This document shows positions 26,224 to 37,953 of a stretch of DNA of 37,953 nt, one piece after another. The DNA is taken from IMG/VR virus record IMGVR_UViG_2563366924_000004. One strand, 5' to 3'. The stretch is from a virus (lineage: Duplodnaviria; Heunggongvirae; Uroviricota; Caudoviricetes). Numbering within the stretch: the stretch's first letter is position 1; every line of letters begins with the position of its first letter. Under the pieces are notes generated by a model. The model ran no database searches. It was not told the DNA's origin and saw nothing but the letters and a program-made list of their open reading frames with translations. Made by a program: the position numbers and the translations under genes.

Positions 26224-26743
26224 TCAGCAACCCCGGTATCAGTTCATCCAGCGCGGCTGCTTTGTTCATGGCTTTGATGATATCCCGTTTCAGGAAATCA
26301 ACATGTCGGTTTTCCAGTTCCGGAAAACGCCGCTGCACCGACAGGGGGATCCCGTCGAGAATACTGGCAATTTCACCTGCGATCCGCGACAGCACGAAAG
26401 TACAGAATGCGGTTTCCACCACTTCAGCGGAGTCTCTGGCATTCTTCAGTTCCTGTGCGTCGGCCTGCGCACGCGTAAGTCGATGGCGTTCGTACTCAAT
26501 AGTCCCTGGCTGGAGATCTGCCTCGCTGGCCTGCCGCAGTTCTTCAACTTCCCGGCGCAGCTTTTCGTTCTCAATTTCAGCATCCCTTTCGGCATACCAT
26601 CTTATAACGGCGGCAGAGTCATAAAGCACCTCATTACCCTTGCCACCGCCTCGCAGAACGGGCATTCCCTGTTCCTGCCAGTTCTGAATGGTACGGATAC
26701 TCGCACCGAAAATGTCAGCCAGCTGCTTTTTGTTGACTTCCAT
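26198..26743 (-). CDS. Nu1: terminase small subunit Nu1, 181 aa
   Basis: Lambda Nu1-like N-terminus MEVNKKQLADIFGASIRTIQNWQEQGMPVLRGGGKGNEVLYD; cos site immediately upstream. Confidence 0.9.
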
Positions 26744-26759
26744 TGTTCATTCCACGGCC

Positions 26760-27000
26760 AAAAACAGAGAAAGGAAACGACAGAGGCCCAAAAGCTCGTT
26801 TTCAGCACCTGTCGTTTCCTTTCTTTTCAGGGGGTATTTTAAATAAAAACATTAAGTTACAACGAAGAAGAACGGAAACGCCTTAAACCGGAAAATTTTC
26901 ATAAATAGCGAAAACCCGCGAGGTCGCCGCCCCGTAACCTGTCGGATCGCCGGAAAGGACCCGCAAAATGATAATAATTATCATCTGCATGTCACAACGT
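26760..27000 (-). promoter_or_regulatory. cos: lambda-type cos region (cosQ-cosN-cosB); 12-nt cohesive end sequence at 26921-26932
   Basis: Minus-strand GGGCGGCGACCTCGCGGGTTTTCGCTATTTATGAAAATTTTCCGGTTTAAGG equals the lambda left end as I recall it; lambda right-end-like sequence on the other side. Confidence 0.8.
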
Positions 27001-27131
27001 GCATCTACGCCATCAAACCACGTCAAATAATCAATTATGACGCAGATATCGTATTAATTGATCTGCATCAACTTAACGTAAAAACAACTTCAGACAATAC
27101 AAATCAGCGACACTGAATACGGGACAACCTC

Positions 27132-27365
27132 ATGTCAACGAAGAACAGAACCCGCAGAACAACAACCCGCAACATCCGCTTTCCTAACCAAATGATTGAA
27201 CAAATTAACATCGCTCTTGAGCAAAAAGGGTCCGGGAATTTCTCAGCCTGGGTCATTGAAGCCTGCCGCCGGAGACTGTGCTCAGAAAAAAGAGTTTCTT
27301 CTGAAGCAAACAAAGAAAAGAGTGACATTACTGAATTGCTCAGAAAACAGGTCAGACCAGATTGA
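27132..27365 (+). CDS. ynfO: small ribbon-helix-helix-like protein, 77 aa (YnfO-like)
   Basis: Basic N-terminus followed by beta-strand/two-helix pattern IRFPNQMIEQINIALEQKG..NFSAWVIEACRRRL typical of RHH DNA binders. Confidence 0.6.
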   Translation: MSTKNRTRRTTTRNIRFPNQMIEQINIALEQKGSGNFSAWVIEACRRRLCSEKRVSSEANKEKSDITELLRKQVRPD

Positions 27366-27422
27366 AGCAATTTAGATAATCGTGCAGACTACGCCCCCTC
27401 ATATCACATGGAAGGTTTATCT

Positions 27423-27833
27423 ATGGATCAGGTAGTCATTTTTAAACAAATATTTGATAAAGTTCGAAACGATTTAAACTATCAATGGTTTTATTCTGAG
27501 CTAAAACGTCACAATGTCTCACATTACATTTACTATTTAGCCACAGAGAATGTTCATATTGTATTAAAAAATGATAATACAGTGTTATTAAAGGGCCTAA
27601 AAAACATTGTGTCTGTCAAATTTTCAAAGGATAGGCATCTTATAGAAACGACCTCTAATAAGCTGAAATCCAGAGAGATCACATTTCAGGAATACAGAAG
27701 AAACCTTGCTAAAGCAGGAGTTTTTCGGTGGGTTACAAATATCCACGAACAAAAAAGATATTACTATACCTTTGATAATTCATTACTATTTACTGAAAGC
27801 ATCCAGAAAACTACACAGATCTTACCACGCTAA
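27423..27833 (+). CDS. ydfO: DUF1398-family protein (YdfO-like), about 136 aa
   Basis: ORF 27408-27833; preferred start at second ATG, which has GGAAGG 6 nt upstream; hairpin at 27843-27868 downstream. Confidence 0.6.
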
Positions 27834-27984
27834 ACCATAACGTCCGGCTTCTCTCACTCCTGAGCCGGACTGCATTGGTTTAATAAAAACCATCAACAAT
27901 TGTGATTTAGATATTCGGAACCATTCAAATATAACAAAACCCCGTAAAAACGAGGTTTATGGATAAATTTTATTATTGAATACA

Positions 27985-28157
27985 TCAGATTAAATTAATC
28001 TTGACATCATAGCTTTCAAGACCCGTCATTTTTTCCCGTGCGGTAAACTGAATACTGGTAACTTCTTTCCCGGTCTTTTTCTTAAGTTCAATAATTTTTT
28101 TGTTATATATTCAGAAATATCTGCTTCTGCTTTTGTTTTTAAGTTTTCAATATTCAT
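27985..28157 (-). pseudogene. gnsB: Gns (GnsA/GnsB)-family gene with -1 frameshift inside an A7 tract
   Basis: Frame 1 gives MNIENLKTKAEADISEYITKK then a stop after 44 codons; the next frame gives IIELKKKTGKEVTSIQFTAREKMTGLESYDVKINLI; the two halves join to a 57-aa Gns-like protein if the run were A8; AAGAGGAAATG RBS. Confidence 0.6.
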
Positions 28158-28328
28158 CATTTCCTCTTTTAGTCTGTTATGACTTTCCAGTTACACAGTA
28201 AGTCGATTATATGGTGCAAACGTGTAAAAGATAAGATGAAACATCGCAATAATCAACATACGATAGTCTAAATTTTACACAAACAGACAAAGAGAATTTT
28301 CCTGAATTATCAATGCAATAGCATCAAA

Positions 28329-28559
28329 TCAACTCAAGAGCCTTATTGCTGCTTCCAGAATTTCTTCTGAAGTAACATGTCGATCCGCGGCTACATAAAT
28401 GACTTTATGATCTCCGGTCAGAGATGGAAACCCTGCGGCCATTACAGTAAGGTGTGTTTTTTCGCCATTTGGATATTCACGCATGATGGTGTTAACTCCA
28501 GTCATCGCTGGCACTACCACTGCTGGTTCAGAGTTAAAAAAAACTATGATTTTTTTCAT
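28329..28559 (-). CDS. ynfN: YnfN-like small protein, about 76 aa
   Basis: ORF 28329-28601; start taken at MKKIIVFFNSEP. Confidence 0.5.
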   Translation of the reverse strand: MKKIIVFFNSEPAVVVPAMTGVNTIMREYPNGEKTHLTVMAAGFPSLTGDHKVIYVAADRHVTSEEILEAAIRLLS

Positions 28560-28604
28560 GATGTTACCGTAGTATGTGAGTATCCATCGAATAGACACCA
28601 AGCC

Positions 28605-28623
28605 AAAAAGCTCCCGAAGGAGC
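28605..28623 (-). terminator. intrinsic terminator downstream of cspI
   Basis: Minus-strand stem gctcc/ggagc with cgaa-type loop followed by TTTTT. Confidence 0.45.
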
Positions 28624-28830
28624 CTTCATTTTCACTTTTTTAAATCCAACGACAGACGGCTGGCATTTAAGTATTGTGAAATATTATCAAATGTAATCAT
28701 CATTGATTTACAAAAGATACATTTTGCCCCGAAAGGATTCATGTCAGAAACATCAAAAGATGATGTTCTATACTGGGAACCATGACAACACGGGCATCTA
28801 AAGTGAATATGGTTTGTAATATTGTCTACC

Positions 28831-29043
28831 TCAAAGCGCCACTACATGAACAGCGGCAGGACCTTTAGGTCCGTTCTCAATACCAAATTCAACTTCCTGA
28901 TTCTCAGTTAATGTTTTGAAATCGTTGCTCTGAATTGCTGAGAAATGGACAAACACATCTTTGCTGCCATCTTTCGGCGTGATGAAACCAAAACCTTTTT
29001 CAGGGTTAAACCATTTTACTAAACCAGTCATTTTGTTAGACAT
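28831..29043 (-). CDS. cspI: cold shock protein CspI, 70 aa
   Basis: CspA-family cold shock domain with RNP motifs KGFGFI and VFVHF; matches my recollection of CspI. Confidence 0.9.
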
Positions 29044-29393
29044 AATTATTACCTTTTGAAGAAATTAGCCCTTGGGCAGAATGGTCCGAAAAAAAATATC
29101 AGAGAGAAAAACCAACAAGGAAATCTCAAGAGGTACAAATAATAAAATTATAACAATGACTGCTTCAGATAAATTTGTAACAAACCAGAACACCATTAAC
29201 GCATGATTAACCACCCATAGCAAGGATTACTTTTGTAAAGAAAAACACAGCAATGAAAGAATAGCTTTATTTATTAATAAAACGTGTCATTCTGATTAAG
29301 ACCTTTTATCTTACCCTTAAGATTTCAGGAATTTTGGCTCATGGAAGAGTCCTTTTTATTTAAATTTTACATTCCGCGGGTAATGACTCCAAC

Positions 29394-29897
29394 TTATTGG
29401 TAGTGTTTTATGTTCAGATAATGCCCGATGACTTTGTCATGCAGCTCCACCGATTTTGAGAACGACAGTGACTTCCTGCCCAGCCTTGCCAGATGCTGCC
29501 TCAGATTCAGGTTATGCCGCTCAATGCGCTGCGTATATCGCTTGCTGATAACGTGCAGTTCTCCCTTCAGGCGTGATTCATAAAGCGGCCAGCCATCCGT
29601 CATCCATACCACGACCTCAAAGGCCGACAGCAGGCCCAGAAGACGCTCCAGCGTGGCCAGCGTGCGTTCACCGAATACGTGCGCAACAACCGTCCTCCGT
29701 ATCCTGTCATACGCGTAAAACAGCCAGCGCTGGCGCGATTTAGCCCCGACATAGCCCCACTGTTCGTCCATTTCCGCGCAGACGATGACGTCACTGCCCG
29801 GCTGTATGCGCGAGGTTACCGACTGCGGCCTGAGTTTTTTAAGTGACGTAAAATCGTGTTGAGGCCAACGCCCATAATGCGGGCAGTTGCCCGGCAT
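29394..29897 (-). CDS. insB: IS1 InsB reading frame, 167 aa (normally expressed as InsAB fusion by frameshift)
   Basis: Matches IS1 InsB sequence. Confidence 0.95.
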
Positions 29898-30091
29898 CCA
29901 ACGCCATTCATGGCCATATCAATGATTTTCTGGTGCGTACCGGGTTGAGAAGCGGCGTAAGTGAACTGCAGTTGCCATGTTTTACGGCAGTGAGAGCAGA
30001 GATAGCGCTGATGTCCGGCGGTGCTTTTGCCGTTACGCACCACCCCGTCAGTAGCTGAACAGGAGGGACAGCTGATAGAAACAGAAGCCAC
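29816..30091 (-). CDS. insA: IS1 InsA, 91 aa
   Basis: Matches IS1 InsA sequence ([43 protein letters not shown]). Confidence 0.95.
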
Positions 30092-30141
30092 TGGAGCACC
30101 TCAAAAACACCATCATACACTAAATCAGTAAGTTGGCAGCA

Positions 30142-30417
30142 TCACCGGATTTTCAATCTTAAAGGAGTACTGATGCTGCAGATAAGACTCAACTTTTCTG
30201 ACAATTTTTCTGCTACTTCCAGGAAGACTTGCCGGACGCTCATTCTGGCTGCTGCCTCATAAAACTCCAGCGTAGCTCCTTCAACACGGTCCATGGCGAC
30301 ATCCAGGCCAAAAATTTCACCGTCAAAGCGTTCTTTGTCCTGTAAGGCTACAGTTACCGTAACTTTATTCTCAAAATTACGGACTCCTTTCACAACCAGT
30401 TCATAGCCTTGAGTCAT
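30142..30417 (-). CDS. ydfR: YdfR-like phage protein with 3' end running into IS1, 91 aa as encoded
   Basis: ORF starts 5 nt after the holin stop; its last sense codon and stop codon lie inside the IS1 terminal repeat. Confidence 0.6.
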   Translation of the reverse strand: MTQGYELVVKGVRNFENKVTVTVALQDKERFDGEIFGLDVAMDRVEGATLEFYEAAARMSVRQVFLEVAEKLSEKLSLICSISTPLRLKIR

Positions 30418-31906: not shown

Positions 31907-32119
31907 TTGTCCCGTAAAATGACAGGAATTGTCAAAACCTTTGACGGCAAAAGCGGCAAGGGTCTTATCACCCCATCCGATGGTCGTATCGATGTCCAGC
32001 TTCATGTTTCAGCGCTCAATCTCCGCGATGCAGAAGAAATCACCACCGGATTACGCGTGGAATTTTGCCGGATAAATGGTCTGCGTGGCCCTTCAGCTGC
32101 CAATGTTTACCTTTCATGA
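31907..32119 (+). CDS. cspF: cold shock protein homolog CspF, 70 aa
   Basis: Divergent from cspB; CspF-like sequence ([23 protein letters not shown]). Confidence 0.85.
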
Positions 32120-33306: not shown

Positions 33307-34355
33307 TTACGCCAGTACGCCAATTGCCAGCGCGCGATCGATAAAACGAAATATCAGCTCCAGTTGGGAGCCATACTTCTCTTCAAATGCCACTGTATCC
33401 GTATGCAGCTCGTTGTGATGCTTTCTGCACAAAGGCAACACAAAGAGATCATGTGCTTTTGTTCCCATTCCGCCCTGCCCGTGACCAATCAGATGATGCG
33501 GATCGTCGGCTGGCATACCGCAGCAAGCATACGGCTGTGTCTTAACCCAGCGTGTGTATTTCTCCTTAACCCACCGGTGACGTTTAGGCAGCTTCATGAA
33601 AGATTCCGGAGACTCTGGATCAACGGTGATGCTTACCACCGTCTTTTCCTGTGATGGGTTTTGTTGCTGGTGGGCGTGAGGCAACGGTGCAAGATTTTTT
33701 GTGCGCTGTTTCAATATGCTGGTGGCGGTCTGCTCTCCCGGTACGATGTCGCTTTCGCGGTACACCGAGCAGATTTTTTCCGCTGGTAATCCCAGCGAGC
33801 GACGTAATACCGCTTCCGGTAGCGCGTCCGCCAGCTGATTGCGGACCGCCCACCAGGAAATTCAGCCAGAGATAATTCACGCTCCTGCGTACCGCTTATT
33901 GCGTGACCGATGACGTCAATCATCCATGCTGACAGGTTTTGATGAGCAAGTTGCTCGAGTGATTCGGATGTCTGGTCACGCAGCTGGTTGTCGCAGTGCC
34001 AGCACAACACCATTGCGCCGGTACCATATCGGTGAATAACGGTTTCGCTGTGATGATAATCGCCGTGTGGCCACTGGCAGGATTTAATATGGCGCAACAG
34101 CCAGTCAGACAATGCACCAGCACCACCAGCAGCACGAATTACCCGTGTGTTACTGAAAAACGGCAGCAATGTTTTGTCTTCCACCAGCGGCTGGCGAACG
34201 GCAGGAACGACCCCGGACGGCAGATTACGCATGCTTTTCGGTTCCGGCTCCACCAGTACCCGGGTATTGTGGAATACCGGCATGGATTCACGGCCCGGCT
34301 TAACGACCACCAGCCCGAGTTCCGGTACCAGAACAGGTCGAAGTAATACCCGCAC
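33307..34355 (-). pseudogene. ydfU: DUF968 (YdfU-like) gene split by a single-nucleotide frameshift
   Basis: Two overlapping ORFs (33711-34355 and 33307-33765) in different frames; shifting frame near 33855-33865 restores a continuous reading of about 349 codons (..LAE.PWWAVRNQLADALPEAVLRRSLGLPAEKICSVYRESDIVPGEQ..). Confidence 0.6.
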
Positions 34356-35864: not shown

Positions 35865-36053
35865 ATGAGGCTTTACATAATAGGAAATGGATTTGACATG
35901 CGTCATGGCTTACCAACAGGATACAAGCACTTTAAGTCGTATGTAGAAAAAAATGACCAAGATCTATATGACGCGATAGAAGAATACATTCCTGCTGGGG
36001 ACGAGTGGAATGAGTTAGAAAATGCTTTAGGTGAAATTGATTATGAGCTTTGA
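35865..36053 (+). pseudogene. AbiH-like abortive infection gene, N-terminal 62 codons only, truncated by IS3
   Basis: MRLYIIGNGFDMRHGLPTGYKHF matches the AbiH-family N-terminal motif as I recall it; stop codon TGA is the first 3 nt of the IS3 terminal repeat. Confidence 0.6.
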
Positions 36054-36973
36054 TCCTACCCACGTAATATGGACACAGGCCTAAGCGAGGTTCTTGTTTT
36101 CAAATTGTTCCGGACTGAGGCCGCCACACCAACTGTGCCGCCGCCACCGATTGTAATCACATTCGATATAATTAAACACCGTTGCCCGCATTATTTCCCG
36201 GCTGATAAAGTGTTCTCCATGGATACATTCCACTTTCAGCGAATGAAAGAAGCTTTCCACGCAGGCATTATCGTAGCAGCAACCTTTTGCGCTCATACTT
36301 CCACGCAGATTATGCCGCTTCAGTTGCGCCTGATAATCTGCTGAACAGTACTGGCCTCCACGGTCCGTGTGAACGATAACGTTCCGGGGCCTCTTACGCC
36401 GCCACAGCGCCATCTGCAGGGCATCGCAGGCCAGTTGCGCCGTCATGCGTGGCGACATTGACCAGCCAATAACGGCACGTGACCACAGGTCAATGACCAC
36501 TGCCAGATACAGCCAGCCTTCATCTGTACGTAAGTACGTGATGTCTCCTGCCCACTTCTGGTTCGGGCCACTGGCGTAAAAATCCTGCTCCAACAGATTT
36601 TCTGACACAGGCAGGCCGTGTGCGCGGTAGCTGACCGGGCTGAACTTCCGGGAGGCCTTTGCCCTCAGTCCCTGACGGCGCAGGCTTGCCGCCACGGTTT
36701 TTACGTTAAAGGGGTAACCCTGAGCACGCAGTTCATCCGTCAGGCGTGGGGCACCGTAACGCTGTTTTGACCGGGTAAAAGCCGCGAGGACAACGCTGTC
36801 GCAGTGTTGGCGGAACTGCTGACGCGTGCTTATCCTTGTCCGCCGCTGACACCACGTATACCAGCCGCTGCGGGCCACCCGGAGCACGCGGCACATTGCT
36901 TTGATGCTGAACTCAGCCTGATGTTTTTCAATAAAGACATACTTCATTTCAGGCGCTTCGCGAAGTATGTCGC
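36051..36973 (-). mobile_element. IS3: IS3 insertion sequence, partial (right end and orfB), interrupted by IS30
   Basis: Terminal repeat TGATCCTACCCACGTAATATGGACACAGGCC at 36051; complete orfB; sequence stops where the IS30 end begins. Confidence 0.9.
36081..36947 (-). CDS. insF: IS3 transposase orfB (InsF), 288 aa
   Basis: Matches IS3 orfB sequence with DDE integrase core. Confidence 0.9.
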
Positions 36974-37953
36974 TGTAGATTCAATTGGTCAACGCAACAG
37001 TTATGTGAAAACATGGGGTTGCGGAGGTTTTTTGAATGAGACGAACATTTACAGCAGAGGAAAAAGCCTCTGTTTTTGAACTATGGAAGAACGGAACAGG
37101 CTTCAGTGAAATAGCGAATATCCTGGGTTCAAAACCCGGAACGATCTTCACTATGTTAAGGGATACTGGCGGCATAAAACCCCATGAGCGTAAGCGGGCT
37201 GTAGCTCACCTGACACTGTCTGAGCGCGAGGAGATACGAGCTGGTTTGTCAGCCAAAATGAGCATTCGTGCGATAGCTACTGCGCTGAATCGCAGTCCTT
37301 CGACGATCTCACGTGAAGTTCAGCGTAATCGGGGCAGACGCTATTACAAAGCTGTTGATGCTAATAACCGAGCCAACAGAATGGCGAAAAGGCCAAAACC
37401 GTGCTTACTGGATCAAAATTTACCATTGCGAAAGCTTGTTCTGGAAAAGCTGGAGATGAAATGGTCTCCAGAGCAAATATCAGGATGGTTAAGGCGAACA
37501 AAACCACGTCAAAAAACGCTGCGAATATCACCTGAGACAATTTATAAAACGCTGTACTTTCGTAGCCGTGAAGCGCTACACCACCTGAATATACAGCATC
37601 TGCGACGGTCGCATAGCCTTCGCCATGGCAGGCGTCATACCCGCAAAGGCGAAAGAGGTACGATTAACATAGTGAACGGAACACCAATTCACGAACGTTC
37701 CCGAAATATCGATAACAGACGCTCTCTGGGGCATTGGGAGGGCGATTTAGTCTCAGGTACAAAAAACTCTCATATAGCCACACTTGTAGACCGAAAATCA
37801 CGTTATACGATCATCCTTAGACTCAGGGGCAAAGATTCTGTCTCAGTAAATCAGGCTCTTACCGACAAATTCCTGAGTTTACCGTCAGAACTCAGAAAAT
37901 CACTGACATGGGACAGAGGAATGGAACTGGCCAGACATCTAGAATTTACTGTC
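36974..37953 (+). mobile_element. IS30: IS30 insertion sequence, left end to window edge (partial in window)
   Basis: Left terminal repeat TGTAGATTCAATTGGTCAACGCAACAG at 36974 followed by the IS30 transposase gene. Confidence 0.9.
37036..37953 (+). CDS. insI: IS30 transposase (InsI), N-terminal 306 codons; runs off the window end
   Basis: MRRTFTAEEKASVFELWKNGTGFSEIANILGSKPGTIF matches IS30 transposase; no stop before the window edge; absent from the ORF track for that reason. Confidence 0.9.
   Translation, partial: MRRTFTAEEKASVFELWKNGTGFSEIANILGSKPGTIFTMLRDTGGIKPHERKRAVAHLTLSEREEIRAGLSAKMSIRAIATALNRSPSTISREVQRNRGRRYYKAVDANNRANRMAKRPKPCLLDQNLPLRKLVLEKLEMKWSPEQISGWLRRTKPRQKTLRISPETIYKTLYFRSREALHHLNIQHLRRSHSLRHGRRHTRKGERGTINIVNGTPIHERSRNIDNRRSLGHWEGDLVSGTKNSHIATLVDRKSRYTIILRLRGKDSVSVNQALTDKFLSLPSELRKSLTWDRGMELARHLEFTV

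Follow-up and report, generated by a model that had tools for sequence, protein, structure and literature searches.

Contraction of a coding adenine run in gnsB of a Qin-type lambdoid prophage of Escherichia coli: a candidate young pseudogene

The closest described counterparts of the gene considered here are GnsB (YdfY), encoded in the Qin prophage of Escherichia coli K-12, and its paralogue GnsA. Overexpression of gnsA or gnsB leads to more unsaturated fatty acids and suppresses the defects of fabA6(Ts) and secG-null mutants, according to Sugai (2001) as that work is cited in a preprint (bioRxiv 10.1101/2024.03.27.586906). The pair ymcE-gnsA, a proposed type II module, is listed as a toxin-antitoxin pair (PMC8484670), and the name "addiction module toxin", which the annotation pipeline PGAP uses, agrees with this listing. 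Regarding slippery sequences, the motifs named as most efficient in E. coli are C_CC.A_AA.G, G_GG.A_AA.G, and A_AA.A_AA.G, and the heptamer AAAAAAA is depleted from E. coli genes in every frame (PMC4066793), which fits such runs as liabilities rather than devices.

We analyzed a window (the whole stretch of DNA under study, 37,953 nt; IMG/VR record IMGVR_UViG_2563366924_000004, Caudoviricetes) in which gnsB is interrupted inside a coding run of A. This copy resembles several known systems, each of them in part. Like E. coli K-12 Qin gnsB, it occupies the same locus with the same neighbors (cspI, ymcF/ynfQ, ynfR, ynfN, and gnsB, with ydfO/ynfO convergent), and its DNA is identical but for one base; unlike K-12 gnsB, however, the window copy is out of frame after codon 21, and the 57-aa protein is not encodable as written. 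GnsA (4XO1/4XO2; ymcE-gnsA) is an equally long paralogue with an identical C-terminal motif, FTAREKMTGLESYDVKI, yet gnsA lies at a different chromosomal locus. As in the programmed −1 sites of E. coli (dnaX, A_AAA_AAG; IS1, IS3, and IS911), an in-phase, tandem-slippery A heptamer is combined with downstream information in the −1 frame; but at the gnsB run there is no stimulatory hairpin, pseudoknot, or upstream Shine-Dalgarno (SD) element, the heptamer ends in A instead of G, and approximately 98% of gnsB orthologues are in frame. With phase-variable loci and the so-called savior-indel cases (e.g. the G-run of herpesvirus thymidine kinase), gnsB shares a coding homopolymer whose length varies among close relatives and thereby switches the frame; the gnsB tract is nonetheless short (8), its OFF state is rare, and neighboring tracts behave alike.

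The contracted gnsB copy and its surroundings

The locus comprises the following features, all on the minus strand:

27985 to 28157, minus strand: gnsB with a 1-nt contraction, 173 nt against the normal 174, including the restored-frame stop TGA at 27987-27985
28095 to 28101, minus strand: homopolymer of seven A in the coding sense (plus-strand T7), where A8 has been contracted to A7
28026 to 28157, minus strand: zero-frame shortened open reading frame, 43 codons plus TGA (28028-28026), with an alternative ATG at 28160
28162 to 28167, minus strand: SD-like AGAGGA, 4 nt before the ATG at 28157 and the same in A8 copies
27937 to 27958, minus strand: intrinsic-terminator-like hairpin with a T-tail, about 27 nt 3' of the restored gnsB stop

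Around the run the minus strand reads ...GAGGAAATGATGAATATT...ACA AAA AAA TTA..., and the T7 tract reported in the initial annotation is indeed exactly seven bases long. Translated from the ATG at 28157, the zero frame yields MNIENLKTKAEADISEYITKK plus LLNLRKRPGKKLPVFSLPHGKK and ends at the stop 28028-28026; the product (whole peptide, MNIENLKTKAEADISEYITKKLLNLRKRPGKKLPVFSLPHGKK) consists of 21 native GnsB residues, followed by 22 out-of-frame ones. The early stop had been recognized before, at 44 codons; this length holds only if the stop codon is counted or if an extra Met (ATG at 28160) is included, the product from 28157 being 43 residues long. From the run onwards the −1 frame encodes the 36 residues IIELKKKTGKEVTSIQFTAREKMTGLESYDVKINLI, up to the stop at 27987-27985, and joining the zero-frame start to the −1-frame end gives 21 + 36 = 57 residues. 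In intact copies the A8 run codes for Thr-Lys-Lys-Ile (ACA AAA AAA ATT), and it is after codon 21 that the frame shifts in A7. The window gnsB is otherwise identical to A8 copies, with no further decay.

Upon addition of one A, the gene encodes a 57-aa protein that is an exact entry in the protein collection (one source name being RepID=GNSB_ECOLI) and is the same as WP_001019606.1, the annotated gnsB product of A8 genomes. This rebuilt protein covers the entire GnsA/GnsB profile of Pfam (PF08178, positions 1-54 of 54; 120.3 bits, E 3e-35, cut-off 27) and aligns with the PDB entries of GnsA, 4xo1 and 4xo2 (E 5e-20); the 43-aa zero-frame peptide reaches profile positions 1-32 of 54 only, with 50.4 bits, a score above the gathering cut-off. 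The initial annotation, which saw a Gns-family gene broken inside an A-run and a Gns-like C-terminus in the next frame, the two halves totaling 57 residues given A8, was therefore correct on both counts: the gene is gnsB exactly (57/57 residues, 54/54 profile positions), and the joined halves are GNSB_ECOLI residue for residue. An exact identity of 57/57 after a single added base is evidently not a chance effect. The feature is gnsB itself, in a Qin-type lambdoid prophage of E. coli. No intact product of about 57 aa with the C-terminal FTAREKMTGLESYDVKI is encoded in a single frame of the window, the C-terminal segment being in the −1 frame; since that segment is out of frame, the window copy would, as written, be a gnsB pseudogene and not a functional member of the family.

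The 401 nt around gnsB match 2,140 of 5,426 complete E. coli genomes. In the matching genomes the gene order is essD, ydfR, rrrQ, rzpQ, cspI, ynfQ (ymcF), ynfR, ynfN, and gnsB, with ydfO and ynfO convergent, and annotated near-identical records place gnsB in the context expected of a Gns-family gene: within a lambdoid prophage, with a csp gene and a small ymcF-like gene 5' of it. An Rfam scan of positions 26500-29800 returned the cspA thermoregulator (the cspI leader) at 28804-29189 on the minus strand as its sole match, with none overlapping gnsB. The scan for terminator-like sites gave one site against 0.2 expected in shuffles, and no consensus sigma-70 site was detected in a promoter scan between ynfN and gnsB. 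In the feature tables that were read, PGAP labels A8 copies as gnsB, WP_001019606.1, and the A7 copy (feature table of ER1709) as "GnsA/GnsB family addiction module toxin, frameshifted".

Other parts of the window are also rearranged or annotated as broken. At approximately 29394-30417 (coordinates transferred from the annotation of contig L003) an IS1 copy is found between cspI and a "frameshifted" DUF1327/ydfR gene. K-12-type Qin carries the lysozyme gene rrrQ and rzpQ at the IS1 position, and the otherwise complete-looking window prophage seems to be without endolysin and Rz genes. The region at approximately 33307-34355 (ydfU, DUF968) is "frameshifted" according to PGAP in the E. coli genome LR536430.1, and the window sequence is the same there. 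Finally, approximately 36000-37953 (also transferred from the L003 annotation) contains a nest of IS3 fragments interrupted by IS30, and a second IS30 copy in LR536430.1, about 9 kb further on, matches window positions 36974-37953 in inverted orientation.

Rarity and recurrence of the seven-base run

Run lengths were counted in the complete E. coli genomes that contain the locus (2,138), with queries shorter than 100 nt, so that a single indel puts identity below 99%:

A7, 96-nt query: exact in 38 of 2,138 complete genomes (about 1.8%)
A8, 97-nt query: exact in about 1,424 of 2,138 complete genomes
A9, 97-nt query: exact in 4 of 2,138 complete genomes

Most of the other genomes in this census carry substitutions, and five sampled rows, at 96.7% identity, have an annotated gnsB feature. 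The full 57 residues are encoded in one frame in seven lambdoid phage records, namely Tritos, PhiR42_1, 2H10 (two records), PhiR63_1, HannyBb, and mEp460_ev081 (OV696610.1, PV340562.1, LR595862.1/NC_049950.1, PV340573.1, PP925841.1, and LR597641.1). In Tritos and 2H10, the phages whose DNA was read, the run is A8, as it is in the alignment of E. coli 300709. The diverged 2H10 allele has kept A8 while acquiring six synonymous and two nonsynonymous changes 3' of the run, counted in the A8 frame. Given that these changes are mostly synonymous, that A8 is the norm, and that the phage copies are in one frame, the 57-aa frame is the one on which selection acts, and the 43-aa form is no conserved product. 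The comparison of orthologues proposed in the initial annotation thus clearly identifies the 57-aa form as the conserved one: A8 is the normal state and A7, the 44-aa form of that annotation, a rare and derived one.

Its full-length presence in lambdoid phages makes gnsB more than a remnant of the defective Qin prophage; in both Tritos and 2H10 a ynfN-like gene precedes it, and in Tritos a ybcV/ydfO-like gene is located 3' of it. Beyond complete genomes, the exact 43-aa product occurs on at least 1,000 contigs (NCBI, ENA, JGI, and Logan) and many draft annotations list it as a protein; an N5D version of it was found on 224 contigs. The index block counts (43-aa product, 2,217; 57-aa product, 58,140) were not used as allele frequencies, since blocks are not genomes and their breakdown is abundance-biased.

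Among the 5,426 complete E. coli genomes, the best match of the window is LR536430.1, an A8 genome. Over 37,455 nt (window positions 500-37953) the two sequences have exactly two differences, the missing T in the run and a C/T difference at 32041. The latter, C in the window and T in LR536430.1, falls on a third codon position of cspF (ATC vs. ATT) and is probably synonymous. With a distance of one base plus one SNP and a gene that is otherwise intact, the A7 event appears to be recent.

To place A7 copies among their relatives, about 3.6 kb of ungapped sequence around gnsB was compared in a haplotype sample of ten contigs with the exact 43-aa product and ten with the 57-aa product; IS insertions and other structural differences inflate the large haplotype distances, and near-zero distances alone were used. 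The A7 copies form no group in this comparison, their nearest neighbors being A8 copies. No SNPs separate the window from L003, L013 from L018, or L007 and L009, each, from L020; L012 and L016 are one SNP apart, and L011 and L015 five. The A7/A8 neighbor pairs span three prophage architectures: a K-12-like remnant, a lambda-like head module, and a ClpP-capsid head module. Since A7 stands next to A8, on haplotypes that are the same or almost so, in five or more backgrounds, the contraction recurs; within a sample of twelve, it has arisen, or has been called, on no fewer than five separate occasions. As an allele, A7 is present in many independent assemblies, and it arises repeatedly.

Is the gnsB run special within its neighborhood? 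In ynfN, 440 nt away, a tract of eight bases (28536-28543, minus-strand T8) is reduced to seven in 416 complete genomes, including every K-12 record among the matches listed (several MG1655 and DH5alpha). The 8-base form of ynfN encodes a 76-aa protein and is the one present in the window, and K-12-type ynfN is "frameshifted" according to PGAP because its tract has seven bases. A second run, of seven bases, is located at 28550-28556. ER1709, a K-12 derivative with A7 and a "frameshifted" ynfN, was considered as a poor assembly; this was dropped, the 7-base ynfN tract being found in every K-12 record among the matches listed. The second neighbor, a noncoding A8 tract in the cspI leader (29089-29096), lies 990 nt away and is A7 in 127 complete genomes. 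It falls within the Rfam cspA-thermoregulator match, and three of these genomes (CX08, CX12, and VE-V11-M) are also A7 at gnsB. With 416 and 127 contracted copies against 38, the gnsB tract varies less than either neighbor and is not special. One property associated with phase-variable loci is nonetheless observed, namely a tract length that changes among very close relatives, repeatedly and independently (lengths 7, 8, and 9; at least five A7 origins at 0-5 SNPs); a tract more mutable or more conserved than comparable ones, which would point to selected switching, is not.

Deletion, miscall, or recoding

We consider the contraction to be, probably, a recent and non-programmed slippage deletion that is real in the strain and has made a young pseudogene of gnsB. 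One A:T pair would have been lost from the coding A8 run by slipped-strand mispairing at replication; the frame would then shift after codon 21, giving a 43-residue peptide without the conserved C-terminal 36 residues (...FTAREKMTGLESYDVKI...), and the loss of this part would inactivate gnsB, leaving a very young, non-programmed pseudogene. The 43-residue peptide, having lost the conserved C-terminal part, is predicted to be non-functional. At most trace amounts of full-length GnsB, well below 1%, would be expected from the A7 allele, through unstimulated −1 ribosomal slippage or RNA polymerase slippage. This reading brings together the identity of the gene, its 1-nt contraction, the rarity of A7, its recurrence across backgrounds, and a sequence with no other decay. 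Among the options raised in the initial annotation (pseudogene, homopolymer error, or a slippage-prone site with variable expression), it is the pseudogene, a young one, that we favor; variable expression holds in a trivial sense only, since short runs of 7-8 bases all slip at low frequency, and there is no sign of a selected switch. Both the gene and the kind of lesion are already known, and a standard annotation pipeline (PGAP) flags the frameshift; a literature search on gnsB gave mostly acronyms of unrelated meaning, and none of the papers concerned a gnsB frameshift.

The main alternative, less likely but possible, is that the strain is truly A8, with an intact gnsB, and that one base was under-called, whether by long-read or 454-type chemistry or in polishing. 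One-base shortening of an A/T 8-mer is a frequent type of homopolymer error; a single homopolymer miscall in the window assembly would look the same as a real deletion. The A8 state of the nearest genome, LR536430.1, which otherwise differs by 1 SNP in 37.5 kb, speaks for such a miscall, as do the scattering of A7 across unrelated genomes, as expected of recurrent errors, and an excess of contractions over expansions of about 10 to 1 (38 vs. 4). In contig L010 (GCA_000249595.2) all four local tracts are one base short, which suggests systematic under-calling in that assembly; the two or three contracted tracts of L004 and L005 are weaker signs, for at the other tracts seven bases is also a common and real allelic state. 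Thus, some of the A7 records in databases are probably artefacts, and caution is warranted before every A7 copy is counted as a real allele. The window itself, on the other hand, agrees with LR536430.1 in 15 of 15 other long homopolymer tracts, an argument against general under-calling though not against one error. In addition, A7 is shared by separate assemblies of isolates whose strain names are similar and whose genomes are almost equal in size (SW071611/19/3, CX08/CX12, and MLI108K1/K2), the contigs with the 43-aa product, at least 1,000 in number, come from many sources (among them a metagenome contig of SPAdes style, covered 89x), and the neighboring tracts display real, heritable length polymorphism, as in the ynfN tract with its seven bases in every K-12 record among the matches listed.

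The run could also serve for phase variation or recoding, whether as an on/off switch under selection or as a site of programmed −1 frameshifting or transcriptional slippage, from which A7 would still yield regulated full-length GnsB, but we regard this as very unlikely. Its attraction is that A_AAA_AAA stands in the right phase for a −1 tandem slip (ac-A AAA AAA-tta, X_XXY_YYZ), the next codon, ATT, opening the exact C-terminal frame of GnsB; moreover, lengths 7, 8, and 9 are all natural, A7 recurs, the diverged 2H10 allele retains A8, and savior indels with low-level compensatory frameshifting are known (PMC5009743). Nevertheless, the two-frame arrangement is found in about 1.8% of loci, always at the tips of the haplotype comparison, and is not conserved (7/7 phage records have one frame). 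Stimulatory elements are likewise lacking: the 82 nt from the run onwards fold at −6.5 kcal/mol (z +1.68), with 194 of 200 shuffles folding at least as well, and the 30 nt upstream of the run contain no GGAGG or SD-like element. With neither a stimulatory structure nor a conserved out-of-frame arrangement, programmed frameshifting is unsupported. In E. coli, heptamers that lack a stimulator exceed a background of about 0.055% by no more than 2-10 times (PMC4066793), and the bacterial cases in which transcriptional slippage is documented to be highly efficient involve runs of nine A or T (PMC5009743). The neighboring 8-mers, noncoding in the cspI leader and coding in ynfN, vary as much or more, and the gnsB run consists simply of Lys-Lys-Ile codons.

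A more elaborate version of the switch would make the A8 run a low-frequency, reversible switch on a membrane-lipid prophage gene, whose A7 "off" state is repeatedly selected, for example because the product is costly or toxin-like, and is leaky by unstimulated −1 slippage (a savior indel plus compensatory frameshift); we judge it highly improbable. The least probable account, to which we give next to no weight, is that the 43/44-aa zero-frame peptide is a functional, selected, shortened Gns variant: ribosome-binding site, start codon, and native residues 1-21 are all preserved, its Pfam score exceeds the gathering cut-off (50.4 bits, profile 1-32), and many drafts list it as a protein, but it is without the most conserved part of the family, is seen only as a rare derivative of A8 haplotypes, is treated as a pseudogene by PGAP, and belongs to a gene whose allelic substitutions 3' of the run are mostly synonymous in the A8 frame.

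Returning to the young pseudogene that we favor, its relevance is small beyond annotation hygiene: in a dispensable prophage gene, the reading frame is repeatedly lost at a short homopolymer, and "pseudogenes" of this sort, when met in single assemblies, warrant read checks before they are interpreted. If the A7 run is real, the strain would simply be without GnsB, a non-essential multicopy suppressor that affects unsaturated fatty acids.
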